A DNA stretch of 64,000 nt from a virus (taxonomy: Duplodnaviria; Caudoviricetes). Position numbers and translations under genes: made by a program. Numbering within the stretch: the first letter of the stretch is position 1; each line of letters begins with the position of its first letter. Below the pieces are notes generated by a model. That model ran no database searches. It had not been told where the DNA came from and was given only the letters and a program-made list of their open reading frames with translations. Location of the stretch: the IMG/VR virus record IMGVR_UViG_3300046727_000401, positions 782-64,781 of that record. One strand, 5' to 3'. This document shows, one piece after another, positions 3,966 through 56,510 of the stretch.

Positions 3966-5204
3966 ATGACGACACCGATCGACGACATGTTGCAGAACCT
4001 CATAGAGAAACTCCACGCCGCGCGCTTCGCCGAGGCGTCCCCGACCATCGCCGACCTGCACCAGGTCGCGACGGCGCTGGAGGACACGCGAAGAATGACG
4101 CGTGGAACCGCGACCGGCCTGATCGAGGCACAGGCGACGCGGATCAAATTGCTCGAAGAACAAAATCAGCACCGAATCGACCTCGCGTTTCACCGCATCG
4201 AACGGGTTGACCAGCTCGTGGCCACGGACAAGACCGATTACCGCGCGATCCTCGGGGCGGTCGCGGACCTGGGCGACCGGGTCAAGAAGCTCGAATCCCC
4301 GTCCATCGGAGACGCCGTGAAGGGATTGGCCGACGACATGCGCAAGCTGGCCGCGCTCCGCGACATCCCGGTGACGCCGGACCGCATCGCCACGTCGACC
4401 GGCGATGATCTCGACGAGGTAGCCGACGCGCTCGGGCTGTCTCGCAAGGGCTGGCCCTGTCACGAGGTGGAGGCCGACGATGCGCTCCGGGTCCGCTGCG
4501 CCGCCGCGCTGTTCGGGCAGTCGATGACGCGCGAGCTGGCGCGAAGCGTAGCGACCGATGCTCGGAGAGCATGGTGGTCCAATAAGAGCGCCGAAACATT
4601 CGCGCCAGAGACTTGCCCAGAGTGGGTGGTTGACGCCGTGATGGCCGCGGCTGGCGCGCACCCGGACGGTCGCCCGCTCGATCAACAGAGCGATCTAGCC
4701 GTCGCGATGGAGCGCGACATCACCGTTGCACTGGGGCTGGCGCCAGAGTCGGTCGCTTGGCCGCGGTGCCTTGAGCTCGTGCGCCAGGCCGTCGAGGCCG
4801 TGACCGCGCTCGGATCGCTGCGACAGCGCATCACCACGCTCGAGGAGCGCAACACGAAGCAGGCGCAGACGATCGCTGAGCTGCAGGACATCAACGCGCG
4901 CGGGATCTCCACCGTCGTGGACCAGGCCGCGCAGATCACGGCGCTGCGCGCCGAGGTCAAGCGCAGCGGAACGATCGACGGCGCCGATGCTCTGCCGCTG
5001 ATCGCCGCGGCCTTGCAGTGGCGCAAGGATGCGGTGGTTCGCTGCGGCGCCTTAGAGGAACCGGAACGGGATCTTGATGTGCTGGTCACGATCGGAGATG
5101 TGGTCTGGCATCGTTACGAGCTTCCGCTCGTCAAGGCGATCGACGAGTACATGGCGTCCAAGGCCACCACTGCGGAGATCGCCGCGTTGACTGGGGCGAC
5201 GTGA
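3966..5204 (+). CDS. Hypothetical coiled-coil protein with internal baseplate-like motif
   Basis: 412-aa ORF after GTAGCTGTGCTATAAAC promoter; contains TSTGDDLDEVADALGLSR...EADDALRVR. Confidence 0.75.
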   Translation: MTTPIDDMLQNLIEKLHAARFAEASPTIADLHQVATALEDTRRMTRGTATGLIEAQATRIKLLEEQNQHRIDLAFHRIERVDQLVATDKTDYRAILGAVADLGDRVKKLESPSIGDAVKGLADDMRKLAALRDIPVTPDRIATSTGDDLDEVADALGLSRKGWPCHEVEADDALRVRCAAALFGQSMTRELARSVATDARRAWWSNKSAETFAPETCPEWVVDAVMAAAGAHPDGRPLDQQSDLAVAMERDITVALGLAPESVAWPRCLELVRQAVEAVTALGSLRQRITTLEERNTKQAQTIAELQDINARGISTVVDQAAQITALRAEVKRSGTIDGADALPLIAAALQWRKDAVVRCGALEEPERDLDVLVTIGDVVWHRYELPLVKAIDEYMASKATTAEIAALTGAT

Positions 5205-5458
5205 GCGACGAGTGCACGTGCGGCCGGCCGCGGGCCACCGATGCCGATCTGGCGCGATGGGTTGATGTCGCTGGCGATCGCCCGATCGAGGCCCACCCGG
5301 CGCCGCTGCCTGCATCAGAGCTGTGGGCGAACGCGCTTTGCTGGACCATGCCCGGACAGCGTCGTTGCGCCATGCGCCGGCGCTGGGCCAGCGACACGCA
5401 CATCGGCGTGGCGCGCTCGGTGTTCGCGTTGTACCAGCTTGGCGTGGTGGTCAGATGA
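5201..5458 (+). CDS. Hypothetical protein
   Basis: GTGA/ATGA overlaps on both sides; Cys motifs. Confidence 0.55.
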   Translation: MSDECTCGRPRATDADLARWVDVAGDRPIEAHPAPLPASELWANALCWTMPGQRRCAMRRRWASDTHIGVARSVFALYQLGVVVR

Positions 5459-6159
5459 ACTTCGCCGACGCCAAGCTCTTGCTCGAGTTCGCCACGCTCC
5501 AGGCGCGGATCGCCGAGGACCACGGCGCGCTCTCAATCGATCCCGTGGCGCTCGCCGGATCACCGCGCGTGCGGCTGACCCAGACCAAGGGTTACCGCGA
5601 CCTGCGGGCGTTCTTCGAGCGCCTGTCCCCGCGCGCCAGGGAGGGGTTCCGCCGCCAGCTGAGGATGCAGATCGACGGCGTGCGCGCCGTGCTCAAACGC
5701 TGCGCGGAGACCGGGGAGCGGCCCTCGCTCGCGGACCTCGAGATCTCGGTCACCGACGTAGAAACCGGGCTGCCGGCCGATGGGCGCTGCGCCGGGTCCG
5801 GCGCAGGCATCACCGAGCCGGTCGACGAGCGCATCGGATGTCAGCGCTGCATGGCGTCGTGGCACCAGAACGACATCGGGTTCAAGATCCCCGAACACCA
5901 GGAGCAGAAAATGAACAAAGTCGACTACGTCAAGCGCCAAGGCCAGACGCGTTCACATCACTGTCACTGGCCGGGCTGCACCGCACAGGTTCCGCCGGCG
6001 ATGTGGGGCTGCAAGGCGCACTGGTTCAAGCTGCCGAAGGCGTTGCGTGACCGCATCTGGCGCGCGTACGTGCCCGGCCAGGAAATCGACATGTCGCCGA
6101 GCGCCGAGTACCTCAAGGTCGCCGACGACGTGCAGCGCTGGATCCGCGAGCACCCGTGA
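5455..6159 (+). CDS. Hypothetical protein with C-terminal CxxxxC/CxxHW Zn domain (possible internal start 5911)
   Basis: HHCHWPGCTAQVPPAMWGCKAHW; AGGAG SD before ATG 5911. Confidence 0.65.
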   Translation: MNFADAKLLLEFATLQARIAEDHGALSIDPVALAGSPRVRLTQTKGYRDLRAFFERLSPRAREGFRRQLRMQIDGVRAVLKRCAETGERPSLADLEISVTDVETGLPADGRCAGSGAGITEPVDERIGCQRCMASWHQNDIGFKIPEHQEQKMNKVDYVKRQGQTRSHHCHWPGCTAQVPPAMWGCKAHWFKLPKALRDRIWRAYVPGQEIDMSPSAEYLKVADDVQRWIREHP

Positions 6160-6344
6160 AGCCCGAGATCCTCCGCCAGAAGGTGACCGCGCTCGCGAAG
6201 ACCTACCGCGCTGACGTCGCTGAGGTCGCCGAGCTCGTCGAGGAGCGCGCGGCGATCCGCCAGCACGAGGGCGGTCAGAAGCAAGGCAACGCCGAGCTGG
6301 CCGCGCTGGTGGACGTCGCGGAGATCTTGGCGCGGCGCACGTAG
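6156..6344 (+). CDS. Hypothetical protein
   Basis: EERAAIRQHEGG motif; GTGA overlap. Confidence 0.6.
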   Translation: MKPEILRQKVTALAKTYRADVAEVAELVEERAAIRQHEGGQKQGNAELAALVDVAEILARRT

Positions 6345-6382
6345 CTCTTGCGCTCTCTCCACCGTTGCGCTATAAACATCGG

Positions 6383-8287: not shown

Positions 8288-11257
8288 TCAAGGCGGGTTC
8301 ACGACGTCCGTGATCGTGAACGCGCGTGGGGTGATCACGTGCGTCCGCTTGCCTGCGAGCACGAGCACGATGTCCAGCCAATAGAGGCCGGGGGTGATGT
8401 TCGTCTCGGCCGATGTGAACCCGAACGACGCTCGCCCCTTGGTCGCCGGCGCGGTCTGGTCGAGCAGCACGACGGTGCCGGCCGCGAGAGACTTGGAGAG
8501 CGTCGGCGGGTCGGCTGCGCCGATCGCGGTCTTCACCTGGACCTCGAGCGCGGCAACCGAGGTCAGGTCGATCGGGGTATCAGTGTCGTCGGTGACGACG
8601 AGCACATAGTCCACATCGTCACCGCGGTACACGGTGAGCGGTCCTGAGAGCTCGATCATGTTCGGGCCTCCGTCCTGCAGTCGACCAAAGAGGGGGCTCC
8701 ATGTGAGCGAGCCGGACACCGGGCCGGTCGTGATGCCTACGGCGTGCCCGGAGATCGTGCCCGTCGCTGCGATCGCCGACGCACCAGCGGCGATCGCTCT
8801 GGCAGCCCCCGCGAATGCGCCGCTGCCGGCCAGCGCACCTGCGCCGGCTCCCGAGTTGAGCGCGGCGCTCGCCCCCGAGAGCCCCCCGACCCCGGCCAAG
8901 TCGCCGCTCGTGGCGATGATCTGCGCACCGACACCCGCGATGCTGCCCGCACCGGCCACCGCGCCCACGCCCGCCGTGAGCTGCGCGCCAGCGCCCGCGA
9001 TCGTGCCCGAGCCGGCCAGGCTTCCGGTGCCCGTGCCCGCCGCGCCCGCGGCGCCTGCCCCAGCGATCGCCCCCGATCCGGTGAAGTCGCCTGCCGTAGG
9101 CGCCGGCGATGCGCCGGTCGCCGCGATGGTGCCGCCGCCTTGCACTGCCGCCGCCCCGGCCGCCAAGCCGCCGCCGGCCGCTGCTAGCGCCCCGGTGCCC
9201 GCAAGTGCTGCCGCGCCGGCCGCGCTCGAGGTGCTGACCGCTGCGAGCGCACCGGTTCCCGCGAGCGCACCGATCCCGGTTGCGAGCTCTGCGCCGGTGC
9301 CGGCCATGTTCCCCGACCCCGAGAGCGCGCCGCCGCCTTGCACTGCCGCCGCGCCCACGCCGGCGAGCGCCCCCGATCCAGTCGCCGCGCCAGCAGCCGC
9401 GATCAGCGCGGCGCCGCCGCCGGCCAGGGCCCCGGCCCCCGTGAAACCGCTGGACCCCGAGCCGAGCGCGGCACCGTGCCCCGACATGTCTCCGGCCCCG
9501 GTGAAAGCGCCGGCCGGCGTGTCCAGCACGAGCAGGAAGTCGGTGTCCCCGGCGTTGTTGTTGGCCGGAGGCGTGAACACGTGGGTGCCCGTGTTTGCGA
9601 TCACGCCGATCGCCGTGAATGCGCTGTTCGTCGGATCGAACCACCGCGCCCGCGCCGAGGCCGCCATCGCGGTCATGGCCACGGTGATCGTGCCGGTGTG
9701 GTCGGGCGGGATGTACGCGAGCAGCAGATCGCCCTCGGGCGTCGCCGCCGCCGCGACGTAGGTCGTCGACTGCGGACTCGCCGTGCCGCCGCCCGCGGTG
9801 ATCAGCGAGATCATGCCGCCGAGCCCCGAGGGTTTCAGGCGGTGCCACGGCAGCGTCTTCCACAGCGCAAACTGCCGAGCCGCATCGAGCCGGCCCTGCG
9901 TCGCAAGCAGCGTCGTCCAGTCCGTCCCTGGCGATCCCGTGTCAAATCTCCAGAGCTGCTCGTGGCCGTAGAACCCGCCCGCGACGCCGCCGAGGAACTG
10001 CCAGTAGGGATACTTGCGGAACGGTGCCGAGCCGCCGAACAGGTCGAGCTCATAGAAGTATTCCAGGCCGATCACGGGCTTCGTCGGAGAGGCCGCGAAC
10101 CCGCGGCGCGCCAGCTCGGCCACCGACTCGTCGGCGTAGCACCCGTTCAGGTCGAACGACCCAGCGGCGAGCACCGTATCCGTCGACAGCGCCGGGCGAT
10201 CCCAGTGCGCGGTGAACAGCAGCGACGCCTGACCGGCCACCGACTTGAGGCCGGCCATCAAGTTGCTCACGGCCGCCGATTCGGCGGTGCTGAGCGTCTG
10301 CGTGTTCGAGCCGTAGTCGCCGCCCATCACCCAAATGATGTTGGGGTACGCTTTCCACCGCGCCGCCATCCATGCGCCGTAATTCCACATCTTCGACTTG
10401 GCGGGATTCGCGAACGACTGCCCGGTGAACCCGCCAGCGCCCGTGACCGCGTCCCACACGACCATCTCGTTGAGCCAGCCCTCGTCGTTCCGGTGGAACC
10501 CGAGGTAGCCGGGCCAGATCAGCACGATCAGCCCGCTGGCCAGCGCCGCGTTCAAGATCGTCTCGACCGTGGTCCAGTAGCTGTTGTTGATGAAGGTGCA
10601 GTCCGGAGCCTGATTGTTGATGTTCGAGTAATTGTCGCTCGCGAACTGGCCCTGCGTACCCGCCGCGCCGGTGGTGCCATTCGGCGAGCCGGTGAACGTG
10701 GTCCCGTCCATCTTCTGCGTGAACGGCAGCAGGCCGCCGCGCTCCTTGGGCGGCTTGACCAGGGTGTAGTGGTGCTCCATCGCGTTCGAGCTGACCGCGT
10801 TGAACCCCTGCGAGACGAGCGTGGAGAAGTACGTGTTCAGGCTAGCAAGCGGGATGTCCTCGAACAGCGACCATGTGGTGTCGGCGCAGAGCAGAAACGG
10901 CGTCCCGTCGGGGTGCACGAGGTAGCGCCCGTTCGCCGACACGCTGACCGGGAAGGAGTTGTTCGAGACCCCTGCGAGCGCACCGACACCAGCGAGCGCT
11001 CCCGCGCCGCCCGCCAGCGATGCGCCACCGCCGGCGAGTGCGCCGGAGCCGGTGAGGACGCCGACGCCCTGCCCGGCGCTCGTGGCGGCGAACGCTACAG
11101 ATCCGGCGAACGTTCCGGCGCCCGCGACCCCGCCGACCCCGGCGCCAGCTATGTCGCCAGAGCCGGTGAACGCGCCGTCGCCCGCAGCGGCCGGGACCCC
11201 GCTGAGCGCGCCAGGTCGCCGCTGCTGCGGTAGCGGTGGGGGACGAAAGAGCGACAC
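8288..11257 (-). CDS. Virion fibre-like protein: Gly/Ala repeats, DUF4038/apiosidase-like glycoside hydrolase, collagen-binding-like domain, BppU-like C-terminus
   Basis: VSANGRYLVHPDGTPFLLCADTTW, YPNIIWVMGGD, RARWFDPT, DFLLVL; C-terminal VYRGDD...PIDLT. Confidence 0.7.
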   Translation of the reverse strand: MSLFRPPPLPQQRRPGALSGVPAAAGDGAFTGSGDIAGAGVGGVAGAGTFAGSVAFAATSAGQGVGVLTGSGALAGGGASLAGGAGALAGVGALAGVSNNSFPVSVSANGRYLVHPDGTPFLLCADTTWSLFEDIPLASLNTYFSTLVSQGFNAVSSNAMEHHYTLVKPPKERGGLLPFTQKMDGTTFTGSPNGTTGAAGTQGQFASDNYSNINNQAPDCTFINNSYWTTVETILNAALASGLIVLIWPGYLGFHRNDEGWLNEMVVWDAVTGAGGFTGQSFANPAKSKMWNYGAWMAARWKAYPNIIWVMGGDYGSNTQTLSTAESAAVSNLMAGLKSVAGQASLLFTAHWDRPALSTDTVLAAGSFDLNGCYADESVAELARRGFAASPTKPVIGLEYFYELDLFGGSAPFRKYPYWQFLGGVAGGFYGHEQLWRFDTGSPGTDWTTLLATQGRLDAARQFALWKTLPWHRLKPSGLGGMISLITAGGGTASPQSTTYVAAAATPEGDLLLAYIPPDHTGTITVAMTAMAASARARWFDPTNSAFTAIGVIANTGTHVFTPPANNNAGDTDFLLVLDTPAGAFTGAGDMSGHGAALGSGSSGFTGAGALAGGGAALIAAAGAATGSGALAGVGAAAVQGGGALSGSGNMAGTGAELATGIGALAGTGALAAVSTSSAAGAAALAGTGALAAAGGGLAAGAAAVQGGGTIAATGASPAPTAGDFTGSGAIAGAGAAGAAGTGTGSLAGSGTIAGAGAQLTAGVGAVAGAGSIAGVGAQIIATSGDLAGVGGLSGASAALNSGAGAGALAGSGAFAGAARAIAAGASAIAATGTISGHAVGITTGPVSGSLTWSPLFGRLQDGGPNMIELSGPLTVYRGDDVDYVLVVTDDTDTPIDLTSVAALEVQVKTAIGAADPPTLSKSLAAGTVVLLDQTAPATKGRASFGFTSAETNITPGLYWLDIVLVLAGKRTHVITPRAFTITDVVNPP

Positions 11258-16728: not shown

Positions 16729-17118
16729 ATGAGGACGATCATGATGGTGGTGCTGTGTACGATGACTGCGTGCGCGGTGGATGCGCCGGACGAGAGCGTG
16801 GCGACCAGCAATCAGAGCTTGATCTGCGATCCAGACTGCGACCCCGGGAACTTCCAGCCCTTGGTATCCGCGGTGATCACCGCGGGCAGTGGGTTGGGTA
16901 CCAGAGTGTCCGGAACCATGGAGTGCTACCACTACGAAGGTGGCTGGTACCCTAACCCCGACGGTGGAGAGTCCTATTCCACGCCTCACGACGAGTGTGC
17001 AGAGACTCGGCAGGATCCGTGGGGGCAGCAGTATAGGGTGAGCTGCAACACCCTCGCAAGCGTCGGGTGCGGCCACTACGCCTGTGGCTACGATCAGAGT
17101 CAGTTGCCCTGCGGTTGA
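16729..17118 (+). CDS. Cys-rich lipoprotein
   Basis: MTAC lipobox, TSNQSL motif, several Cys; TTGACA...TATAAA upstream. Confidence 0.75.
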   Translation: MRTIMMVVLCTMTACAVDAPDESVATSNQSLICDPDCDPGNFQPLVSAVITAGSGLGTRVSGTMECYHYEGGWYPNPDGGESYSTPHDECAETRQDPWGQQYRVSCNTLASVGCGHYACGYDQSQLPCG

Positions 17119-41241: not shown

Positions 41242-41667
41242 CTACACGGTTTCGTCTTCGGCCGCGGCACGGATCGCGGTCTCCACGACGGCCTCTTGGT
41301 CGACGTCTCGCTCGCGGAACAGCGCGACAGGTCTCGGCTTGTCGGCCTGCCGCTTGAACTCCTCGATGAGCCCGAACGCGATCCGATCAGGATCGTCGCC
41401 GTGGACTTCGATCTTCTGGATGTGGATCCCGAGCGGCAGAAATCGCCGCGCGATCCCGCCGAGGTTCGGGAACCGTTCGACGATCCTCGCGGCGTGCTCA
41501 TGACAGACGAGGATCCTTGGCATGATGTCGTTGATCAGCGCAAACGTTGCGATCGCGTGACATTCACCCGGGACACGATCATTGCCGTACCGGGTGAAGT
41601 ATTCGCAGCCTGGCTCTGCGATCTCCGCGGCGGTACATGTCACGACGTCGCCAGGTTCGATGGGCAT
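41242..41667 (-). CDS. Cys/His protein carrying a copy of the tape-measure C-terminal motif
   Basis: HIQKIEVHGDDPDRIAFGLIEEF vs TMP HIARIEVQSDDPDRIAFGLIEQF; TGC-TACCGT-6-ATG. Confidence 0.8.
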   Translation of the reverse strand: MPIEPGDVVTCTAAEIAEPGCEYFTRYGNDRVPGECHAIATFALINDIMPRILVCHEHAARIVERFPNLGGIARRFLPLGIHIQKIEVHGDDPDRIAFGLIEEFKRQADKPRPVALFRERDVDQEAVVETAIRAAAEDETV

Positions 41668-41705
41668 GGCTCGACGGTAGCACGTTTGCCGTGCTACAAA
41701 CCAGC

Positions 41706-41933
41706 ATGCTCACCACCGCGCACCTCCTGCTCCACCTCGGCAAGCACACGTGCGGCACGGCCGGATGCCGAGACCGCGCCTCGCGCCTGATCCGCTGCAC
41801 GACCTGCAAGGCAGTCATCGCGCGCTGCGGAACCCACGGGGCGAACATGATGCGCGAGCGCGACCGGCACTGCGCTACGCCAGCGCCTGTTCGTACTGCG
41901 GACCCACGAGCGCCAGCGTCGGAGTCCCGCTGA
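41706..41933 (+). CDS. Small Zn-finger protein (antisense insert)
   Basis: GTGCTACAAAC promoter; C..GC...CTTC...CGTH. Confidence 0.55.
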
Positions 41934-42774
41934 CCGTGACCGCCTGCATCAACACGAAGTGACCCGGCGGCACGAGGTACTTGAGCGAGCCCACGTTCCC
42001 CGAGGTCGCCCCGACCCCGGCGATCTTGACGCCTCGACGGTCGCGCTCGGTGGTTGGCGGATTCGACGCATCGCAGAGGAGCTTGACGTACCCCTCTTGC
42101 GCGCCGAGCAGGGTCGACGTCGCCTCCGCGTTGACGCAGTAGCTCACGTTGCACGGCGCGGTGGTGCTCGGTTGCCAGGCCGATCCACCGATCGCGCGAG
42201 TCGTGGTCGTCGTGGTGATCGTCCCGAACCCCGCGCCCGGATCTCCCTGCGCTCCTGTCGCGCCGGTGGCACCCGTCGAACCCTGTGCACCAGGAGCTCC
42301 AGTTGCTCCGGCGGGGCCTTGCGCGCCGGTTGATCCTGTTCCTCCGGTCGATCCAGCCGGCCCAGTTGCCCCCGTCGGTCCGGTCGCACCTGTTGATCCC
42401 TGCGATCCCGTGGGTCCCGTCGCTCCCTGCGGTCCGGTGATGCCAGGATCCCCCACCGGGCCCTGTGAACCCGTCGGACCTGTCGGACCTGCTGCGCCAG
42501 CCGGCCCGGTCGCGCCTGTGGCGCCTGGCGCTCCTTGCGGGCCCGTGGGACCAGTCGCGCCTGTGGCGCCCGTTGCCCCGGTGGGGCCCTGCGCGCCCTG
42601 CGGACCCTGTGGTCCCATCGGGCCGATGAGCTCGTAGCCCGCGGCGCCCTTCCAGAACAGCGAGCAGGCATCGGCGCCACTCTGGTAGGCGATCAGCTGC
42701 GGATCGCTGCCGGGCGGAGCCGTCACCCTCGGATCCACGTTCGTGATGTACGGATGCAAAGCGTCGAACGTCAT
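41875..42774 (-). CDS. Collagen-like (Gly-X-Y) protein
   Basis: About 44 uninterrupted GXY triplets and a C-terminal beta domain; GGAGG SD. Confidence 0.85.
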
Positions 42775-42839
42775 CTCGTAACCTCCTGCCCCAGTGAGGG
42801 GGAGGCTACGATACGGCGCCGGCGAAAGCTACCAGCTGA

Positions 42840-43208
42840 TCAGCCCGCGATCTTGACCACGTCCATCATGTCGGTGCGAGACGAGCGCTCGCGGAGCTGG
42901 GCCGTGACCTTGACGTCACCCTGCCTGGTCGGCTCGTCGAAGGTCTCTTCGCGCAGCTGGCGCTTGAGCTGGTCGATCCGGACCAACGCCGCCGCGAGCG
43001 AGCGCTCCGCCACCGCAGCCCGGGACTCGGCGATCGCCAGCTCCACCAGGGCCGCCGCCGCCGTGTCGCTGATCAGCGCGAGGTGCGGCGCCAGGTGCTT
43101 GTGGCAGACCTCGGCCCCACGCTGGGCCAGGCGCAACAGGCGACCGCGGGACCGCGAATCCGCGGGGAGGCGATTCGGGATGGGCCCGACTTTGGTTCCG
43201 GTGCTCAT
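42840..43208 (-). CDS. Hypothetical protein
   Basis: ATGA overlap; coiled coil. Confidence 0.55.
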   Translation of the reverse strand: MSTGTKVGPIPNRLPADSRSRGRLLRLAQRGAEVCHKHLAPHLALISDTAAAALVELAIAESRAAVAERSLAAALVRIDQLKRQLREETFDEPTRQGDVKVTAQLRERSSRTDMMDVVKIAG

Positions 43209-43552
43209 CGCCAGTCCGCGCAGTAGCCGAGGTGGCAGATCGGCTGGTCGGTCCCGGCCGGGCACGTGTACGAGTGCTGGCACACGGCGGCGGAGTCGAG
43301 GCACATCGTCTGACACGCCTGGTCCCCGAGGCCGAACAGCAGCGTCGGGTCGCAGTTCGAGGTGACCGACGAGCATCGATTGACGGGCGCCCCGCCGCCC
43401 CCGCCGCCCCCTCCGTCGCAGTAGATCGGGTTGCCGTCGTCGTCGTAGTCGCACGGCACCTGCAGCGCCTGCGTGCTGTCGGACGTGGACGGTGCCATGT
43501 TGACCGCGCAGGCCACCGTTGCGCATATCAGGAACAGGATCGTCGCTCTCAT
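43205..43552 (-). CDS. Cys-rich lipoprotein
   Basis: MRATILFLICATVAC lipobox, DSTQAL, Gly linker, many Cys. Confidence 0.75.
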   Translation of the reverse strand: MRATILFLICATVACAVNMAPSTSDSTQALQVPCDYDDDGNPIYCDGGGGGGGGAPVNRCSSVTSNCDPTLLFGLGDQACQTMCLDSAAVCQHSYTCPAGTDQPICHLGYCADWR

Positions 43553-43926
43553 CGTCGCTCTCCTTCTTTGGGTTCGGGTACGCGGTGCGCGGCGAGGATC
43601 TTGTCGAGCGCGGCGATCGTCTCCGGGAACCCGCCGTATCGCGCCACGAAGTTGCGCGCCGCTTCGAACTCCACCAGCGCCTCCGGCCCGAGCCCGTACG
43701 GCACTGGGCACACGTGGCCGGGCGACGTGGCGGGCGGGGTGATCTTCAGTGCCCTGACGATGGCGTCCAGTTCCATGCAGACCGCTTGGATGTTTCCCCG
43801 GATGACGTCGAGCGCCTCGGGCGCGGTGAAGCCGGCGTCATCGCAACGCTTGATGATGCGGAGCGCGGCCTCCTTCGCGCTTGTCCAGTCGATCTCGGTC
43901 GCTGAGGTCAAAACGGTGCGGGTCAC
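43549..43926 (-). CDS. Hypothetical protein
   Basis: GTGA/ATGA overlaps. Confidence 0.55.
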   Translation of the reverse strand: MTRTVLTSATEIDWTSAKEAALRIIKRCDDAGFTAPEALDVIRGNIQAVCMELDAIVRALKITPPATSPGHVCPVPYGLGPEALVEFEAARNFVARYGGFPETIAALDKILAAHRVPEPKEGERR

Positions 43927-44216
43927 CAGCGGAACTCCACCGGCGCAATGGCGGGCCGGAGCTGCGCCGAGGGGTACTCGTAGGAGCTGGTCGACCCGTC
44001 GGCGTCCGTGGTGGTGATGGCCCAGTGGTCGGCCCGTCGTCCGGGTCCGGTGACCACCGCGGTGTTGTAGTGGTCCCACATCCACACGACCGCGCCGGCC
44101 GCGTAGTTGCGCACCACGGGGCCGCGCCACGCCGCCAGGGTCGCGGGCTTGATGCTGGCGATGTGGGCCGCCAGGACGGCGAACGGGTCGGTCTGGGTCT
44201 GCGTCGTGTTCATCAT
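43923..44216 (-). CDS. Hypothetical protein
   Basis: Directly downstream of promoter cassette copy B. Confidence 0.6.
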   Translation of the reverse strand: MMNTTQTQTDPFAVLAAHIASIKPATLAAWRGPVVRNYAAGAVVWMWDHYNTAVVTGPGRRADHWAITTTDADGSTSSYEYPSAQLRPAIAPVEFRW

Positions 44217-44222
44217 GGTTCT

Positions 44223-44263
44223 GTTTATAGCACCGCTACTGTGCTCGCGCAAGGGGCAATCGT
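44223..44263 (-). repeat. 41-bp promoter cassette, copy B
   Basis: Reverse complement ACGATTGCCCCTTGCGCGAGCACAGTAGCGGTGCTATAAAC. Confidence 0.85.
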
Positions 44264-44313
44264 CCGAACGGTTACCCTGGTACAATGTCAGCAAGACATG
44301 TTACCATCATGTC

Positions 44314-44835
44314 ATGCCAAGGATCTACACCAAGCGCGACCCGATGGAACGCTTTAATTACAAGGTCTTGAAGACAGAAACGTGTCACATCTGGCAGGGT
44401 ACCAGGCTCGGTAAAGGGGGAACTCTGTACGGGATTTTTGCTCACAGAACCAGCCGGCCCAAGGCAACATGCTTGGCGCATCGCTGGATTTTCGAGCAGA
44501 CCCACGGGCTCATCCCGGACGGGATGTTCGTGCTGCACAAATGCGACAACCCTGCCTGCGTGAGGATCGACCATCTTTTTCTTGGAACGCCCAAGCAGAA
44601 CACCCAGGACATGCTCCGCAAGAAGCGGAATTTCGTGCGTAACGGAGAGTTGAGCGGAATGGCCAAGCTCAGTGATGCCCAGGTCGCAGATCTTCGCCGC
44701 AGAGCGAAGAACGGTGAGAGCCGAAAGTCACTGGCCAATAGGTTCAAGACGTGCGCCACCAACGTTAGGTCAATCATCCTCGGCCTCAGCAGATCGAGAC
44801 CAGCAGACCGCCGTCTAGCCAAATGGGGCCTTTGA
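44314..44835 (+). CDS. HNH homing endonuclease with C-terminal HTH-like domain
   Basis: CHIWQG, YG, AHRW, VLHKCDNPACVRIDHLFLGTPKQNTQDM, AKLSDAQV; visibly lower GC. Confidence 0.9.
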   Translation: MPRIYTKRDPMERFNYKVLKTETCHIWQGTRLGKGGTLYGIFAHRTSRPKATCLAHRWIFEQTHGLIPDGMFVLHKCDNPACVRIDHLFLGTPKQNTQDMLRKKRNFVRNGELSGMAKLSDAQVADLRRRAKNGESRKSLANRFKTCATNVRSIILGLSRSRPADRRLAKWGL

Positions 44836-46377
44836 TGGAGATGTACCTCTCTGAGATTGCTTGACTTCCCAGAGTTCATTGTACCCGTGTGCGAGCGCGT
44901 CGATCTGGTCATCCTCCAAATCCCCCACGCCCGTGAACTTGTCCGCCTCCCACAGCAGCTCATCGGCCCAGGTGATTCCGGCCTGAACGCCGGCGCGGAG
45001 CTTGCGCGCGAAGCGCTCGCCGGTGACCTCGTTGGCCGGCAGCATGAACCGGCCCTGGCGCCCGTCGGGCCATGTCGCCTTGCTGTCCCACCACAGGTCA
45101 CTGTCGATCGGCACGAGCACCCGGCCCGCGTTCCAGGCCGCCGCGAAGCCTTGCGCGCGCGTGAACTTGTCGCCCTTGGGCTTGATTGGGCGGATGCGCA
45201 GGCGCGGCTCGATCTCCTTGAGGATCTGCGGGACCGCCTTGAACCCGCCCACGGACTCGACGGCGATCGGCACCGGGTAGCGGTCGCCCCAGTGGCGTTG
45301 CTGGATCTCGTAGAGCTTGCGCGCGACAGCCGGCACGGTGATGTGGTCGCGCCAGCCGTGGAGGATCCACACCTTCATGTCCAGGCCGAACCCCTTCGCG
45401 GCGAGCACGAACGCGGCCGAGAAGTCGGCGCGGTTGTCGTCGGTCGCGGCGGGGTCGCAGCAGATGATGATGCGGTGCTCGTCCGGGCGCCAGTCGGCCA
45501 GGCTGAACGTGGCCGGCTCTCCGAAGATGTCGGCGCCCTTCGGCCGCGGGCGCTGCTGGTAGAGCGACGCGAAGCTGTACGGCCCCGAGCTCTCCTCGAT
45601 CCGCCGGAGCTCCTCGATCGGCATCTGCTCGGGCCAGAGCGCCTCGCCGATCTGCCGCCCCAGGATGTCGTCCTCGTCCTCGCAGATCGCGGGGAGGCGA
45701 ACCTCCTCGAACTGGTACCCCTTGTACTTGCCCTGCAGCAGCCGCCCGATCAGGTCGTCGGCGTGCCAGCGCGTGAACTGCGCGATCACCGAAGCGCCCA
45801 TGTTGCGCTTGCTCGGCGGGTGCAGACGCGGCCACAGGACGTCGGTGAAGAACTCCCACACGTTCTCGCGGATCACCTTGCTCTCGGCGTCCTTGCGGTC
45901 CTTGTACAGGTCGTCGAGGAGTGCCACGCCGTTGATCGGCATGCCCGACCACTGGCCTTTGTACCCGTGCGCGAGCAGCCCGCCGCCGCGGTCCGTCTGC
46001 CACTCGTGCACCGCCGCCGACCCGCGCGGTATCTCGACGCCACCACCGGTGGCCATGCGCCGGCAGATGCGGGACTTCGATGCCGCGAGCTGGTCGTTGT
46101 ACGTCGCGTAGCCGTGCGACAGCACCGGGTCGCGCGCCATGCGCCAAGCCAGCCCATGCAACCCGGTCGTGCTCTTGCCGGTCTGCGGTGGCTGCATCAC
46201 GCACGCGAACACCCGCTCATACCGCGTGCGCTCCCACAGGTCGGCGACAGGCTCGAGGTGGCGCTTGATGCTGTGGTGCGGCGAGACGCGCGCCACGAAG
46301 TCCCGGAATGACTCGCCGTGGTCCGCACGCAGGAGGGCGGTGAGCCGCGCTTCCTCTGCGGTCCCGAAGGCGACCAC
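44815..46377 (-). CDS. terL: Terminase large subunit
   Basis: PPQTGKST Walker A, LLDD Walker B, TRWHADDL, LYQQRP, CDPA, DDQIDA. Confidence 0.95.
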   Translation of the reverse strand: MVAFGTAEEARLTALLRADHGESFRDFVARVSPHHSIKRHLEPVADLWERTRYERVFACVMQPPQTGKSTTGLHGLAWRMARDPVLSHGYATYNDQLAASKSRICRRMATGGGVEIPRGSAAVHEWQTDRGGGLLAHGYKGQWSGMPINGVALLDDLYKDRKDAESKVIRENVWEFFTDVLWPRLHPPSKRNMGASVIAQFTRWHADDLIGRLLQGKYKGYQFEEVRLPAICEDEDDILGRQIGEALWPEQMPIEELRRIEESSGPYSFASLYQQRPRPKGADIFGEPATFSLADWRPDEHRIIICCDPAATDDNRADFSAAFVLAAKGFGLDMKVWILHGWRDHITVPAVARKLYEIQQRHWGDRYPVPIAVESVGGFKAVPQILKEIEPRLRIRPIKPKGDKFTRAQGFAAAWNAGRVLVPIDSDLWWDSKATWPDGRQGRFMLPANEVTGERFARKLRAGVQAGITWADELLWEADKFTGVGDLEDDQIDALAHGYNELWEVKQSQRGTSPSKAPFG

Positions 46378-46380: not shown

Positions 46381-46614
46381 TTACCTGTGGATCTTGGCGA
46401 CCGGCAACGGAGCCGGCGGGCTGTTCCCCTCGATGCAGTCGTGCACCTCGATCACGAGGTTCTGACCTTGCTCGGTGTTCGCCCAACGCGTGTAGCTGCA
46501 GTACATGCAGCGACCAGGAAAGACGGTGTGCCATTGCCGGGTTCCGTCGTCGGAGAATCCGCTCGGCTGCCTCAGACGGGCAACCACCCAGCGCGCGACA
46601 TCGGCCAGTTTCAC
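46381..46614 (-). CDS. Hypothetical Zn-binding protein
   Basis: CMYC...HDC; GTGA overlap. Confidence 0.55.
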   Translation of the reverse strand: MKLADVARWVVARLRQPSGFSDDGTRQWHTVFPGRCMYCSYTRWANTEQGQNLVIEVHDCIEGNSPPAPLPVAKIHR

Positions 46615-47189
46615 GCCTGCCCCCGCGGCCTGCGCCCGATGTCCGTGGGGATCTCGACCTCCGGCACCAGCGTCACCACTGGTCCGGCCGCCGTGCGGTG
46701 CAGGATATTGATCAGCATGTGGCCCGGGTCGAGCATGTCCTGCTCGCACGTGACCTCGACGCCGAGCACGTCCGGATCGAACGCCTGGAGCGCAGCGGTG
46801 AGCTCGGCGCGCAGTTCGGGCAGAGCGCTCGCCGGCCCTGGCACGTACCGCTGCATCACCGCGGCGACCACGTCACCGGCCGCGGGCTGCTCCTGGCGTG
46901 CGATCGCCCGGCCGATCACCACCGCCCAGCGCGGCACCGGGCGCGGGATCCACAGGTCGGCCGCGTCCCGGGTACCGCGGAGCGTCAGCATGCCGGTATG
47001 GTGCGCGTCGTCGATCACCAGCTGTCCGATCGCCTCCCACATGGTCAGTCGGCCCACGCCGAACAGCGCCATGACCAGCGCCTCGCGCTCCAGGCCGTGC
47101 CGGCGGTCGCAGGAATCGCAGAGCACGCAGCGGCGCAGCTCGGCGCGGAGGCCGACCTGGATCACGCCACAGCAGCGACAGGGCCTCAC
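46611..47189 (-). CDS. Zn-finger protein with gp25/sheath-like C-terminal segment
   Basis: CRCC...CVLCDSC; ELRAELTAALQAFDPDVLGVEVT...PGHMLINI. Confidence 0.6.
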   Translation of the reverse strand: MRPCRCCGVIQVGLRAELRRCVLCDSCDRRHGLEREALVMALFGVGRLTMWEAIGQLVIDDAHHTGMLTLRGTRDAADLWIPRPVPRWAVVIGRAIARQEQPAAGDVVAAVMQRYVPGPASALPELRAELTAALQAFDPDVLGVEVTCEQDMLDPGHMLINILHRTAAGPVVTLVPEVEIPTDIGRRPRGQA

Positions 47190-48483: not shown

Positions 48484-48672
48484 TCACGTCGTCCCGTTAC
48501 AATTCGGGCACGGCTCGTCTACCGACTCCTGGCCAGCCACGAACGCGTTGTGAAGCTCTCGCTGCAGGCGCTCCAGCAGCGTCTCGCCAGTCTCGTTCTC
48601 CATGTCCGCGTCGAGTTGGAACATCTCGATCAGCTCACGCGCCAGCGCATCGAAGTCGGTCCGGTTGCTCAC
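48484..48672 (-). CDS. Hypothetical protein
   Basis: GGAGG SD; ends CPNCNG. Confidence 0.55.
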   Translation of the reverse strand: MSNRTDFDALARELIEMFQLDADMENETGETLLERLQRELHNAFVAGQESVDEPCPNCNGTT

Positions 48673-48941
48673 CTGTCCTCCGTGAGCGAGTCCGGGACCT
48701 GGTCGAGCTCGAAGTCCGGGCTGCCGCCGTGCTCGATCGTCCGGTCGCGCGGCTCCAGCCCGAGCCGATCGCGAGCGGCAGCCCAGCGTGCGCGCGCGGC
48801 CTCGCGCAACTTCTCTCGCCTCTCCGGGCTTGGCCTGCCCTTGCGCCGGGCCTGCATCACGCGGTTGCGCTGGGCGATGAGCCGGCGGCGCTCGGCAAGG
48901 CGGCGGGTCGCGTCCGAGGTGTGGCCGACGAACGCGGTCAT
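48669..48941 (-). CDS. Hypothetical Arg-rich protein
   Basis: Overlaps; SPERREKLREAARARWA (NUMOD3-like). Confidence 0.5.
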   Translation of the reverse strand: MTAFVGHTSDATRRLAERRRLIAQRNRVMQARRKGRPSPERREKLREAARARWAAARDRLGLEPRDRTIEHGGSPDFELDQVPDSLTEDR

Positions 48942-49459
48942 CGGGTGCACGATTCCTGGTAGCCACGCATCCACTGCTCGAACGTGCGGCCGTCCTCATT
49001 GCGACCAGACGCGCCCTCGATCGCGTAGTCGGTCAGGTCGTAGACTTGGAACACCGGATACGAAGGATCTCCGACATGGCTGTGATGCCTCCGCCCGTGC
49101 TCCATCTCCCTCCGCATCCCGCTGGAGAACCGGCGGCCGCAGAGCACGATGCCATCGCAGCGCTCGACCACCGCGCAGGCGTCGACCATGCCAGCGTCGC
49201 GCTGAGCTGGATCGGCGTCGTCCGCGCCCGCCACGACGCTCGCGATCCACGGAGCGATGAACGTGGTCTCCGGGAAGCGCTTGCGCAGCCACGCGAGCCA
49301 GCGCTGGGCACTCGCAAGGTGCGCCAGCAGAACGCCCAGCGTGACCTCCTCGAAACTGGCATCTCCGGGCCCTGGCCGCTCTCGCCAGGCCGGATGGCTC
49401 CGGATCTCGTCCTCGGTCGGCCGCAGGCAGTGCGCGACGTACAACACGCGGCGGGTCAC
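48938..49459 (-). CDS. Nucleoside 2-deoxyribosyltransferase-like (DUF4406-type) protein
   Basis: LYVAH, IAPW, VERCDGIVLCG...SSGMRRE. Confidence 0.65.
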   Translation of the reverse strand: MTRRVLYVAHCLRPTEDEIRSHPAWRERPGPGDASFEEVTLGVLLAHLASAQRWLAWLRKRFPETTFIAPWIASVVAGADDADPAQRDAGMVDACAVVERCDGIVLCGRRFSSGMRREMEHGRRHHSHVGDPSYPVFQVYDLTDYAIEGASGRNEDGRTFEQWMRGYQESCTR

Positions 49460-50085: not shown

Positions 50086-50976
50086 TCACGACCCGTCGCT
50101 GGGCGCAGTGCTCGCACGTAGGAGGGCGTCCATCTGCGCCGTGGTCAGCTCGTGTCCGTTCTCGCATCGGTAGCCCGTACCATCGAGGGGTGACATCGGC
50201 GTCGCGCACTGAGGACAGATCCCGAGCGGGTTGACGTGCTCTGCGGGATCGAACACGGCCAGGGTCGGGATGTCGACAAGCAGCGAACGCAGCTTCGCCA
50301 CTTCGCGCTCGATCTCTTCCGGCGATCGATTCGGGTAGCTAGCGGAGACGCGGTGGATCTCGGCGTGGATGGGAGCGTTGTGGTGGTGCGCCTCGAATTT
50401 GGGTCGCACCGCATCGGCGATGATGCCGATGGCCGGCTCCGGTGCTGGCGCCGGAGTTGCCATCGTCGCCAGCATCTCCCTGCCGATCGTCAGGAACACG
50501 CCGTGCGGCTCGATCGTCAGGCCGTGCACGATCTCGCAGTCGTCGATCCCTTTCGCGATGCACAGCCCCAACGCCGCGACCACGTGATGAGACTCGACCA
50601 GGTCTTGGCGCTCCAGCGCCGCGAGCCGGGTCACCCCGTGCACCGGCTGGACGTCGTCGCGGCGCGTGAGGGCGCGCGCCAGGTCCAGGATCGGCGCGAT
50701 CGCCAAGCCATGCAGGTACGCGTAGCCGGCCGCGCAGACCATCGCCTTGCCCAGGTGCTCGACCGCGTGCTCCGCGTCCTCGGTCTCAAAGGTGCCGCCG
50801 ACATACTCGATCACACCGAGGGCGAGCTGCTGCGGATCAAGGTCGCTGCCAGAGCACCAGATTCGCTCCTGGAGCTCGTGGACCTGGTTCTCGAGCTCGA
50901 GGTCGGTCGGCTTGTGGTCCTCGCCGTCGCCCCAGCGACGGATCGCGGACTCGTACAGCCGCGCGAGGTCGGTCAC
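50086..50976 (-). CDS. Chimeric protein: degenerate MazG-like N-terminus, TMP-end-like motif, Zn ribbon
   Basis: LGVIEYVG...EHLGKAMV; IHRVSASYPNRSPEEIEREVAKL; CPQC...CENGH. Confidence 0.55.
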   Translation of the reverse strand: MTDLARLYESAIRRWGDGEDHKPTDLELENQVHELQERIWCSGSDLDPQQLALGVIEYVGGTFETEDAEHAVEHLGKAMVCAAGYAYLHGLAIAPILDLARALTRRDDVQPVHGVTRLAALERQDLVESHHVVAALGLCIAKGIDDCEIVHGLTIEPHGVFLTIGREMLATMATPAPAPEPAIGIIADAVRPKFEAHHHNAPIHAEIHRVSASYPNRSPEEIEREVAKLRSLLVDIPTLAVFDPAEHVNPLGICPQCATPMSPLDGTGYRCENGHELTTAQMDALLRASTAPSDGS

Positions 50977-51374: not shown

Positions 51375-52049
51375 TCAAGCCGGCTCGATCATCGCCAGCC
51401 GGCGAGATGCGAGCGTCACGCTGTCCGCGCTGAGGTCACATCCCATGAACAAGCGCCTGGCCATCAACGCCGCGCTGCCCACCGACGCAGAGCCCATGAA
51501 CGGGTCCACCACCAGCTCGCCGGGCTGCGTGCTCTGCTCGATCAGCACGGTCGAGAGCTTGACGGGTTTCTCCGTCGGGTACCCGTCACGCACACGCGCC
51601 GCGGTGATCACGTCCGGCACGCCCAGGTCGTTGAGCTTGCGCTTGCCCTTCTCGAAGAACAGCACGAACTCGTGCCGGCAGCGGTAGTGGTACCCCATGC
51701 CGATCGTGACCTTGTCCCACACCAGCGGTTTCCAGAATCGGAACCCTGCCGCCTCGGCCATCGGCTTGACCACGAACATCGTCTCCTGGTCGCACATCAG
51801 GTAGAAGTGCCGGTCTGCTCGCAGCACCCGATAGACCTCGGCAAGGAACTCGGGGAAGCGGGCGTTAGGGAAGATCTGGAACCAGTCATTGCTCGAGCCG
51901 GCGCTGTGCTTGAGCCGGGTGGTCGTGCCGATGGCGCGGTGCTTCTCCAGGGACTCGTACGCCGGGTCCGTGACGACCAGGTCAACCGAGGCGTCGGGAA
52001 GGCCGCGCAGCCACTGCACCGCGTCGCCCTGCGAGACGGACCAGGTCAT
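51375..52049 (-). CDS. N4/N6 DNA methyltransferase (beta class)
   Basis: VDLVVTDPAY (motif IV) before YPTEKP and DPFMGSAS (motif I). Confidence 0.9.
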   Translation of the reverse strand: MTWSVSQGDAVQWLRGLPDASVDLVVTDPAYESLEKHRAIGTTTRLKHSAGSSNDWFQIFPNARFPEFLAEVYRVLRADRHFYLMCDQETMFVVKPMAEAAGFRFWKPLVWDKVTIGMGYHYRCRHEFVLFFEKGKRKLNDLGVPDVITAARVRDGYPTEKPVKLSTVLIEQSTQPGELVVDPFMGSASVGSAALMARRLFMGCDLSADSVTLASRRLAMIEPA

Positions 52050-54918: not shown

Positions 54919-55256
54919 GGGACGGTCTTTCGTTGCATAGTTCGCACGCGCAGGTACTCACGATGTCCGCCGCGCTTCCATGCCAGCACAAGGCACTCGA
55001 TCGGCGACAACATGAGGTGCGCGCCGCGGCCCAGCGTCACATCGGTCTCACCGCGGGCATAGGCGCGCTCGCACAGATCGATGATCCCGCGGATTCCGAC
55101 GATGGTCAGCTTGATGTCATGGATCGTCCGCGTGGCCGCGATAGTAGCCTCCGAGACTCCGCCGAACGGCGCGAGCATCAGCTCCGCACGCAATAGTCCG
55201 ATGCGGTCGCTGACTGGCATATCCTCTCGACCGGACAAATTGACAAGATCGCTCAT
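54915..55256 (-). CDS. Hypothetical protein
   Basis: GAGG SD; overlaps. Confidence 0.5.
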   Translation of the reverse strand: MSDLVNLSGREDMPVSDRIGLLRAELMLAPFGGVSEATIAATRTIHDIKLTIVGIRGIIDLCERAYARGETDVTLGRGAHLMLSPIECLVLAWKRGGHREYLRVRTMQRKTVP

Positions 55257-55540
55257 CTGCACCTCACGGTCTGCCAGTCTACCACGGTGGGCCGCGTCGT
55301 ACCAGTGCAATAAACCCGGCCTTCGAGCACCCACGCCGGCTGCACGCTGCGCTCCGGTCGGAGGTAGGTCCCGTCCCACTCCGGGTCCCCGACCGGGTGC
55401 GGCCAGCACGCGAACCGGCCGTCTCGCCGGATCCCGGTGCGCAGGTCCAGGTCGCCAGGGCACCGCGCCGAGGTCGGGCGGAACCAGGCGGCGAGCGCCA
55501 GGCAGAGGAGCGAGAGCAGCGCGGCGGTGAACGAGCTCAC
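55253..55540 (-). CDS. Secreted/membrane-anchored Cys protein
   Basis: Hydrophobic N-terminus, four Cys in mature part. Confidence 0.55.
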   Translation of the reverse strand: MSSFTAALLSLLCLALAAWFRPTSARCPGDLDLRTGIRRDGRFACWPHPVGDPEWDGTYLRPERSVQPAWVLEGRVYCTGTTRPTVVDWQTVRCR

Positions 55541-55764
55541 CCGGCCCTCCATGCGCGCGCCCGCGTCGTCTTGCCGGCCGCCTTGGCGCCGCGCTTGATT
55601 CGCTTGAGCTCGGCCAGCGCCTGCTCATGCGTGATCTCGCCGGACTTCATCCGCTCGACGAGCACGGCGCGCACGGACATCGAGTCGGCTACCTCTCCGG
55701 CCGCCTCTGCTGCGTTCACGGCGGCGCGCTTGTCTTGGCCTGCCTGCCATCGATCGCGCGTCAT
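55537..55764 (-). CDS. Hypothetical protein
   Basis: VADSMSVR...GEIT...ELKRIKR. Confidence 0.65.
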   Translation of the reverse strand: MTRDRWQAGQDKRAAVNAAEAAGEVADSMSVRAVLVERMKSGEITHEQALAELKRIKRGAKAAGKTTRARAWRAG

Positions 55765-56510
55765 CCGAGCTCTCCATCCACGCCGAAGGACAGCGCGGTC
55801 TCCGCCTCCGTCATGTGGTCATGCGTGCAGGTCTCCGCGCCGAGCAGCTTGCAGTTCTCTGACGTGAGCGACCCCGATGCCGAGCTGTGCTGCTCGCGCA
55901 GCGCCTTGCAGTTGCACGGGAACGCCCGGTCGAAGATTCCGGACAGCGGCTCGCGGCCTTCCGCCTTCTCGATGACCTTCGCGGCGTCGCGGATCAGCTC
56001 GACCGACAGCGGGCGCGGCGGCGGATATTGGACCAACGTCGGCGCGAGCGAGCGGTCGATGCCAACGAACCCCCTACCGCGTGATTCCTCCACGCTGTTG
56101 TCGCCCATATAGTAGAGCCCGCACTTCGGGCATGGATCCGGCATCAGGTCGGCATCAGGGGTATCGCTGTTCGCGAGGTGCAGGCACGCCCGCACTTCGC
56201 GCATGGCATCGCGCGCGGTCTCGGCCAGCTGTTCCGCGAGCGGACGCGAGATGTCCCAGGCCCAGGCGTCGCCCTGGTCTCCGGTGGAGATCCTGTGCGA
56301 CCCGAGCGGCAACTCGTAGAGGGCCTCGCCCTCGGCCAAGCCACCGTGGACCGCGATCATCCGCCCCGCCGCAACGTCCACCTCCGGCTCCTTGGCCTTT
56401 CCGAGGGACAGTAGCTGCCCGCAGTCCGCGCACTGCTTGAACCATCGGGGTCCTTCGGAGCGCTTCTTGTGCCTGCACTGCGCCAACTTGTCACGCCTAC
56501 GTTTCGCCAT
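55761..56510 (-). CDS. Multi-Zn-finger protein with capsid-like segment
   Basis: CADC, CPKC, CNC; GFVGIDRS...RPLSVELIRDAAKVIEKAEG; GGAG SD. Confidence 0.65.
   Translation of the reverse strand: MAKRRRDKLAQCRHKKRSEGPRWFKQCADCGQLLSLGKAKEPEVDVAAGRMIAVHGGLAEGEALYELPLGSHRISTGDQGDAWAWDISRPLAEQLAETARDAMREVRACLHLANSDTPDADLMPDPCPKCGLYYMGDNSVEESRGRGFVGIDRSLAPTLVQYPPPRPLSVELIRDAAKVIEKAEGREPLSGIFDRAFPCNCKALREQHSSASGSLTSENCKLLGAETCTHDHMTEAETALSFGVDGELG

Follow-up and report, generated by a model that had tools for sequence, protein, structure and literature searches.

A copy of the tape measure protein's terminal module in a small accessory protein of an uncultured soil myophage: a possible counter-defence decoy

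Tab, described in Pseudomonas phage JBD26, acts on the tape measure protein (TMP), at its C-terminal part, and blocks tail assembly; it is answered by anti-Tab, the product of a small non-essential gene within the late packaging operon, beside an antisense gene, which is reported to bind Tab (PMC10884400). In the Tai/Ati system, which is carried by satellites and prophages, the inhibition of tail assembly is centred on the central tail fibre, at its C-terminal region (PMC11364771). The TMP is also involved in two other systems: Avs18 recognises a central helical segment of about 130 residues and not the end (PMC13581612), and two reported escape substitutions for the TMP-directed Rta of PLE11, L362P and N355S, do not lie at the TMP C-terminal end (PMC12987554). 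The present analysis concerns a stretch of 64,000 nucleotides (the window) from an uncultured soil myophage, namely bases 782-64781 of the 64,781-bp record IMGVR_UViG_3300046727_000401, which is rated complete by CheckV. The subject is a small accessory gene at 41242-41667, whose protein includes a copy, now diverged, of the module that ends the TMP of this phage. The two genes and their relevant parts are as follows.

25006-26937, minus strand: TMP gene, 643 amino acids, no Cys, assigned from position and size
25009-25131, minus strand: TMP end module, amino acids 603-643 (41 residues), a strand, a DDPDR turn and two helices
41242-41667, minus strand: accessory gene, 141 amino acids, with an N-terminal MPIEPGDVV, a CCCH (three Cys, one His) zinc-type domain, the module copy and an acidic tail
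41494-41607, minus strand: domain A of the accessory protein, amino acids 21-58, Cys21-x14-Cys36 ... Cys55-x2-His58, putatively zinc-binding
41311-41433, minus strand: module copy in the accessory gene, amino acids 79-119, the first 26 or so well kept and the second half diverged

The gene set was obtained from a gene call based on G+C content at third codon positions (GC3), followed by profile searches against Pfam, PHROGs and NCBIfam. When 102 proteins (100 called genes and two versions at the lengths used in an earlier note on this DNA) were compared all against all by BLASTP, the TMP and the accessory open reading frame (ORF) formed the only non-self pair below an E value of 1e-3, residues 601-633 of the former and 79-111 of the latter being identical at 20 of 33 positions (60.6%; E 7e-11 to 3e-10). 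Against the 25 proteins of the virion block, the accessory ORF scored 47.0 bits, compared with a maximum of 28.1 among shuffled sequences, and the score was reached by 0 of 100 shuffles. Moreover, when all six-frame ORFs of the window were searched with a profile built from 73 different TMP ends, the E values were 8e-29 for the TMP and 3e-14 for the accessory ORF, the next-best ORF (E 0.29) being in the wrong frame. The copy of the TMP C-terminus that the earlier note had pointed out in this ORF is thus borne out by pairwise alignment, shuffling and profile search alike.

At the DNA level, the two sequences agree at 67 of 99 positions, and 7 of the 20 identical residues are encoded by different codons. 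According to the Nei-Gojobori method, the synonymous divergence (dS) between the copy and the TMP is about 0.7, and the ratio of nonsynonymous to synonymous divergence (dN/dS) is 0.21 for the 23-codon core and 0.46 for 31 codons. Given the DNA divergence, the synonymous changes, the dS and the dN/dS, the copy would be neither a recent duplication nor a product of neutral decay; that is to say, it appears to be old and seemingly constrained. Over the compared core, 18 of 25 residues are identical between the phage's own TMP module and the accessory copy.

As for the rest of the accessory protein, the homologues P0002-P0005 back its coding status and the ATG at 41667. Its nine N-terminal residues are letter for letter the same in P0005, and its acidic tail comprises 20 residues. 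Domain A is also found in the form of small stand-alone proteins lacking the module (P0002, P0003 and P0108), in all of which C21, C36, C55 and H58 are kept, a pattern that suggests putative zinc binding. The AlphaFold 2 (AF2) model of the whole 141-residue protein is poor, with a mean predicted local distance difference test (pLDDT) score of 48. A scan for promoters and terminators around the accessory ORF gave no signal above shuffles.

The identity of the TMP gene was judged from its surroundings, which include the following pair.

27101-27613, minus strand: chaperone-like gene, overlapped by a -1 frame ORF (26934-27545) that reaches the TMP start

The arrangement at 26934-27613 is the usual tail-chaperone frameshift layout, and no canonical in-frame X XXY YYZ slippery heptamer was found in the overlap. 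The gene at 25006-26937 lies between this tail-chaperone pair and the baseplate hub genes, with the sheath and tube genes upstream of it; it was accepted as the TMP gene because of the chaperone-like gene and -1 frame ORF before it, the hub and baseplate genes after it, and the existence of a family of 570-675-residue proteins in related phages. No family match was obtained for it in Pfam, PHROGs or NCBIfam, and a tblastn search of the phage collection returned just two weak matches (24-29%) to hypothetical proteins of two phages. The protein encoded directly after the TMP (23906-25009, minus strand) ends in about 50 residues whose consensus looks LysM-like by eye, in the position of P2 gpX and Mu gp43, and Pfam gave no match for it.

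A profile search for TMP relatives, limited to proteins of 225-2000 amino acids, retrieved 91 proteins: 85 of 570-675 amino acids, five shorter TMP fragments and P0095. By pattern matching, the module starts exactly 41 residues from the C-terminus in 83 of them, 42 and 44 residues from the end in two others and at the N-terminus in P0095, and five do not match the strict module pattern. Among 86 full-length TMPs, which are 26-96% identical to that of the window, the last 41 columns have a mean conservation of 0.845, compared with 0.52 for the whole protein and 0.66 for the next-best 40-residue window. The end module is thus the most conserved 41 residues of the TMP, with the reservation that the estimate is inflated by the use of the module itself in retrieving the set. 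In the AF2 prediction for the last 104 TMP residues (alignment of 48 rows; mean pLDDT 78), residues 601-614 are extended and unpaired, and two helices follow, one at 615-631 and one at 633-642. Searches of the TMP end against the PDB gave neither a sequence relative (best E 0.5) nor a fold match (best E 3.6). In the closest relative (locus L011 of genome G001; P0007), the TMP end carries a Glu where the AFGL motif otherwise has a near-invariant Gly, and that genome has no mimic gene.

The module also occurs outside TMPs. A second module search, covering proteins of 25-415 amino acids, returned 24 proteins: 13 TMP fragments, three proteins with domain A only, seven non-TMP carriers (the window ORF, P0005, P0105, P0106, P0109, P0095 and P0110) and one probable assembly chimera. 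The last of these, P0102 on an 847-bp contig, has a signal peptide and a TonB-plug-like N-terminus joined to a TMP end, and it was excluded from the carriers. An eighth carrier was found on the 67.8-kb contig C256 of a metagenome-assembled genome (MAG), G006, which encodes a TMP and, 28 kb away, a protein of about 477 amino acids with a module copy (profile E 1.2e-8). This protein is homologous (BLASTP E 4e-8, 25% over 264 amino acids) to the product of another ORF of the window.

3966-5204, plus strand: second candidate of the earlier note, no module in the window (profile E 36); its G006 homologue carries the module

The module in the G006 protein is an insertion, falling in a gap of the 3966-5204 protein. 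A degenerate module in 3966-5204 was also considered, since MAFFT placed TPDRIA under the G006 module, and was rejected in view of the BLASTP insertion and the profile E of 36.

The eight non-TMP carriers have four architectures: the portal-slot family, P0095, P0110 and the G006 homologue. The portal-slot family consists of the window ORF and its four homologues P0005, P0105, P0106 and P0109; these four have the N-terminus of the window ORF and a divergent domain A, carry an added zinc ribbon and have the module as their last part. The DPDR-AFG-E core of the module is invariant in all five members, at an overall identity of 35-43%; between P0005 and the window ORF, which are 35% identical overall, the best-kept stretch is the module core (18/25 residues). 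In P0095 the module comes first, at the N-terminus, and Cys-rich segments come after it; P0110 has it in mid-protein, preceded by a Cys/His-rich N-terminus. When each carrier was matched to its nearest TMP at 25 core positions, the agreement was 22 for P0095, 20 for P0110, 19 for the window, 18 for P0005 and 13 for G006, a spread of 13-22 that suggests several captures of different age. The first 26 or so module residues are kept in all carriers. All but one of the eight (G006, which keeps most of it) show a diverged or missing terminal half of the TMP module, and no carrier protein ends with the terminal REG of the TMP. The variable residue after DPDR is that of the resident TMP, I in the window and M in G006, which, with n=2, is a hint. 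Scans of viral contigs with the accessory ORF, P0095, P0110 and the G006 protein detected no further carriers; with the module alignment, viral contigs gave only TMP ends (8 loci) and genome contigs gave the one MAG contig.

The accessory gene is located in the packaging/head module, between two genes identified by profile.

44815-46377, minus strand: large terminase, phrog_38 E 9e-69, with weak Pfam Terminase_6N/6C matches
39376-41232, minus strand: portal, phrog_145 E 1e-20, directly downstream of the accessory gene

The accessory gene stops 9 nt short of the portal start, both genes being on one strand. The earlier note's placement of this ORF outside the capsid gene block does not hold. 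Seven loci cover the portal-upstream region: two contain a module gene, two an unrelated 263-residue gene, two are empty, and one is not alignable. Besides the window, the module gene occurs in the sister phage L033 (terminase 96% and portal 82% identical), where the slot is taken by the gene of the 128-residue P0005, with 8 nt between it and the portal gene. The slot of L003 and L004 (G001 and G003) holds an 857-bp insert with the unrelated 263-residue ORF; at L005 and L008 the conserved flank meets the portal start with 0-5 bp between; and L006 (G002) could not be aligned. Since the slot is empty or otherwise filled in close relatives, the accessory gene appears, by this comparison of loci, to be dispensable and non-essential.

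The variable accessory region (41242-44800), whose upstream limit is the large terminase gene, contains two further genes of interest.

41637-41933, plus strand: antisense Cys/His-rich small ORF, 63-98 amino acids, set among late genes, facing the accessory gene head to head and conserved in G001, G005 and L033
41875-42774, minus strand: collagen-repeat gene, 299 amino acids, G-X-Y repeats and a C-terminal globular part, Pfam Collagen 1e-19, NCBIfam Scl-like 2e-21

Because of the variable slot, the antisense ORF and the patchy collagen-repeat gene, the terminase-portal interval is regarded as a hot spot for accessory cassettes. The antisense ORF, whose frame and strand cannot be fixed by GC3 because the wobble phase is common to both strands, is kept in relatives with or without the mimic and is retained in G005 (L008) despite the empty slot. 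Its retention there disfavours an obligate pairing with the accessory gene and makes it a weak candidate for a Tab-like partner; it could be a separately expressed moron. The collagen-repeat gene lies in the late operon, was missed by the GC3 gene call and is absent from G001, L005 and L008. One soil contig joins 41875 to 42865, skipping this gene, and it may come from the source sample.

The earlier note had made a wider claim, namely that up to five ORFs, all of which are indeed present, each contain a segment resembling a virion protein and might form a modular family of fragment displayers. Significant similarity was found in one of the five, and a five-member family in this genome therefore falls away. 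For the other four, the best BLASTP E values to any window protein were 0.11 (3966-5204), 0.22 (46611-47189), 0.62 (50086-50976) and 0.13 (55761-56510), and the best virion-block score was reached by 3, 70 (63 for a 250-residue version), 49 and 33 of 100 shuffles, respectively. These similarities are at chance level, the lowest count (3966-5204) coming from a coiled-coil-like stretch set against the N-terminus of the Mu-F protein; the TMP-end profile matches only the TMP and the accessory ORF, and none of the five ORFs has a structural-family match in Pfam, PHROGs or NCBIfam. Likewise, conservation in homologues was found for the TMP copy only, of which P0005, P0105, P0106 and P0109 keep the DPDR-AFG-E core; in the other four ORFs no virion-protein segment was detected. 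The central idea of fragment display consequently survives for a single fragment, for which it is strengthened by the homologue and the further carriers, and fails for the other four. They are nevertheless real genes, conserved in relatives, three of them with conserved Cys clusters. Four of the five ORFs, 3966-5204 being the exception, do have the Cys/His clusters noted earlier, from which metal binding would be an inference; relatives retain the clustered Cys of 46611-47189 and of the accessory ORF, as well as those at the C-terminus of 50086-50976 and at the N-terminus of 55761-56510. From its position just upstream of the large terminase, 46611-47189 may be the small terminase, for which neither a profile nor the Atlas gave support. 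The ORF at 50086-50976 (minus strand) is an early protein without the TMP module, and its C-terminal zinc ribbon (amino acids 210-286) shows homology with the central part of P0005 (35% over 78 amino acids, E 2e-5); zinc-ribbon modules are thus shuffled among the accessory proteins of the clade.

The remaining landmarks of the window, whose G+C content is 64-72%, that of the phage being 67%, were found by profile search.

37463-39016, minus strand: Mu-F-like head protein
33633-34679, minus strand: major head protein
30344-30940, minus strand: tail completion protein
19096-19593: gp25-like baseplate gene
18013-19092: gp6/J-like baseplate gene
62092-63249, minus strand: RecE-like exonuclease, phrog_434, 1e-56
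51375-52049, minus strand: DNA methyltransferase, phrog_67, 3e-39

The last two mark the location of the replication/early block. Two large proteins are probably tail fibre or depolymerase enzymes: one of 989 amino acids (8288-11257, minus strand) with an apiosidase-like glycosidase domain and a collagen-binding-type domain, and one of 565 amino acids (19590-21287, minus strand) with an SASA carbohydrate esterase domain. The esterase gene is only 30% identical to that of G001, while the adjoining genes are more than 90% identical. Two weak matches within the genome, with E values of 0.002-0.005 that are borderline for 102 queries, join the 41-residue N-termini of 16729-17118 (plus strand) and 43205-43552 (minus strand), which are 40% identical, and 27 residues of 48669-48974 (minus strand) and 19590-21287 at 56% identity. 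Direct terminal repeats are present in four relatives (G001, G002, G007 and G009). In the collection of deposited phages, which contains no close relative, a near-DNA search and a protein search with the 141-residue ORF gave no match. Parts of the accessory-gene region are present in three DNA sequencing runs (two from soil, one from freshwater), and no RNA run containing it is listed; a 687-bp contig identical to 40821-41507 possibly comes from the source sample and so gives no independent support.

As regards function, the TMP C-terminal module is probably a selected and portable interaction element. Building on the observed similarity, conservation, repeated capture by unrelated accessory proteins and gene position, and on the dispensability seen in relatives, the reading that we favour, tentatively and in the knowledge that it may well be wrong, adds late expression, binding and a decoy role: the accessory protein, expressed late, would mimic the TMP end in the service of counter-defence. 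It would presumably be made late, together with the tail proteins, since its gene shares a strand with the packaging and head genes. According to available parts of the literature, the TMP end, and with it the module, is expected at the tail tip, in the distal hub of the baseplate (PMC10884400; P2 preprint), and the simplest role of a copy would thus be to bind whatever binds the TMP end. The small CCCH zinc-type domain could serve as a stable scaffold on which the diverged copy of the phage's own 41-residue module is shown as a binding epitope while the TMP is being made. This epitope would compete for the proteins that grip the TMP end and would soak up a blocker of tail assembly or a sensor, of host or prophage origin, aimed at the TMP C-terminus in the manner of Tab, so that the real TMP would be left free to dock. 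This is favoured because TMP-directed blockers and sensors exist, Tab in particular requiring the TMP C-terminus and being answered by a small late-operon protein; because the gene is accessory and patchy, as is typical of anti-defence genes; and because the first 26 or so residues are kept and the terminal half is mostly diverged or lost, by which an inhibitor could be engaged without full competition for the hub. The loss of the terminal half would then be the mark of a partial mimic that avoids full docking in the hub. A broader version, in which a whole clade of soil myophages uses such epitope decoys, their scaffolds neutralising those proteins of a host or prophage which grip the TMP end and so block tail assembly or sense infection, is a little more doubtful still.

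Several points weigh against the decoy. A second module copy is present in two of seven complete or near-complete clade genomes (G000 and G006) and absent from the other five (G001, G002, G007, G008 and G009). The assignment of 25006-26937 as the TMP is itself positional, without a profile match; the dN/dS estimate is rough, being based on 23-31 codons; and the late timing of the accessory gene is deduced from the order of the genes alone. No defence gene directed against the TMP end module was found. A mimic should also contend for the hub with the TMP of the same phage. No precedent was found for the step of mimicry, anti-Tab being reported as a binder of Tab with no TMP mimicry stated in the available part of that source. 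A full-text literature search likewise yielded no description of accessory proteins with a copy of a TMP terminus, nor of counter-defence by virion-epitope mimicry, which is not proof of absence.

Alternatively, the module could be a tail-targeting tag, docking the accessory protein on the baseplate partner of the TMP end (the hub or the LysM-like protein) as a minor component of the tip or lumen or as delivered cargo. Short common targeting peptides are known, such as the capsid-targeting sequence of T4 internal proteins and the N-terminal packing signals of cargo in extracellular contractile injection systems (eCIS) and Photorhabdus virulence cassettes (PVC), and we know of no tail-lumen cargo system in phages. 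The position of the gene within the structural block, 9 nt from the portal gene, and the occurrence of the module at N-terminal, internal and C-terminal positions, as tags would be, fit this view, as does the expected place of the TMP end at the distal hub. Each hub subunit, however, is expected to be filled by a TMP chain, so that extra copies would displace the TMP; one carrier, of 477 residues, is a homologue of 3966-5204, a gene of the non-structural plus-strand block; and the terminal half is diverged or lost in seven of the eight carriers, the terminal REG being absent from all. We consider a tag unlikely. Rather less likely is a self-association or fold element without a common partner, either a strand-helix-helix oligomeriser or something like a ribbon-helix-helix, which would close the TMP trimer and would dimerise or bind DNA in the zinc-ribbon proteins. 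Zinc ribbons are common in small phage regulators, the AF2 prediction of an unpaired extended stretch followed by two helices would suit such an element, and one source names the TMP fragment P0065 an Arc/MetJ-type ribbon-helix-helix regulator. That identity found no support: ten module-bearing or related proteins gave no such Pfam match at E values up to 10 and the PDB profile search gave none; the fold search was empty as well. Repeated capture specifically from TMPs, with TMP-like surface residues (up to 22/25), would moreover be unneeded for a generic fold.

Interference with rival phages, whereby the module protein would block TMP docking of co-infecting or superinfecting relatives, would draw on a known strategy, as available parts of the literature on tail-assembly interference indicate (PMC11364771, PMC10884400), and the strand residues of the window copy are indeed unlike those of its own TMP and like those of other clade TMPs (the Q-K variant, P0094). 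We nonetheless judge it improbable. The copy is 18/25 identical to the phage's own module, so that self-poisoning is likely, and the gene lies in the late operon and not in a lysogeny-expressed cassette; a dominant-negative inhibitor, which the earlier note had entertained, is disfavoured because it would be encoded in the phage's own late operon and would poison the docking of its own nearly identical TMP. Neither an integrase nor a repressor was seen among the ORFs scanned, which number about 50 and are not every gene of the window. Could the copy simply be neutral debris of recombination, a 3' piece of a TMP gene that landed in a moron and has no function? Phage genomes are mosaic and the slot is a hot spot of gain and loss, yet the core stays invariant in a homologue of 35% identity, dN/dS is below 0.5 at a dS of about 0.7, and there are at least four independent carriers, so that this explanation, already disfavoured, is held to be very improbable. 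Finally, the full proposal of five accessory proteins, each showing a different virion-protein fragment, is refuted at the level of sequence for the window and is scarcely credible: the conserved Cys/His clusters in four of the five, the zinc-ribbon homology of 50086-50976 to P0005 (E 2e-5) and the module carried by a 3966-5204 homologue in another phage would speak for it, set against four similarities out of five at chance level without profile support and one proposed member, 46611-47189, for which position makes the small terminase a likelier identity.

The mosaicism of phages and their accessory genes for anti-defence are known background; what would be new here is a copy of a virion epitope as the working part. 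The finding of module copies is recurrent, appears constrained and is directly testable. If the decoy reading is true, phages would have a form of counter-defence whose logic is new and simple, the display of a copied target epitope, and scanning accessory proteins for short copies of a phage's own virion termini may reveal epitopes seen by immunity or by assembly partners. If instead the docking tag is true, the module would define a route for loading accessory proteins into the phage tail tip. Either way, it marks a functional contact surface of an otherwise unannotatable TMP family.

Compared with known systems, the targeting peptides of T4, eCIS and PVC are similar to the module as short portable peptides that sit on unrelated accessory proteins and direct them to a virion compartment, but they are not copies of a structural protein's own terminus. 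The closest are Tai/Ati and Tab/anti-Tab, in each of which a protein made during the lytic cycle counters a blocker of tail assembly; they were compared by description and gene position only. Tai/Ati is similar in that both the defence and the answer to it turn on a tail protein's C-terminal region, Ati being made in the lytic cycle and binding its cognate inhibitor; the difference is that the target is the central tail fibre and not the TMP, and that the available text describes no mimicry. For Rta and Avs18, no phage decoy is reported in the portions available, but they show the TMP to be a recurrent immune target or trigger, so that a TMP mimic could matter. Tab/anti-Tab differs in that JBD26 is a siphophage, that no TMP mimicry is stated for anti-Tab in the part of the source at hand, and that the antisense ORF of the window persists in relatives without the mimic. 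It is nevertheless like the present locus in several respects: the accessory gene is small, apparently non-essential, situated in the late packaging operon (where late expression would be expected) and adjoined by an antisense ORF. With Tab, Rta and Avs18 as published TMP-directed defences, so far as the available sources describe them, a decoy built from the TMP end is plausible.

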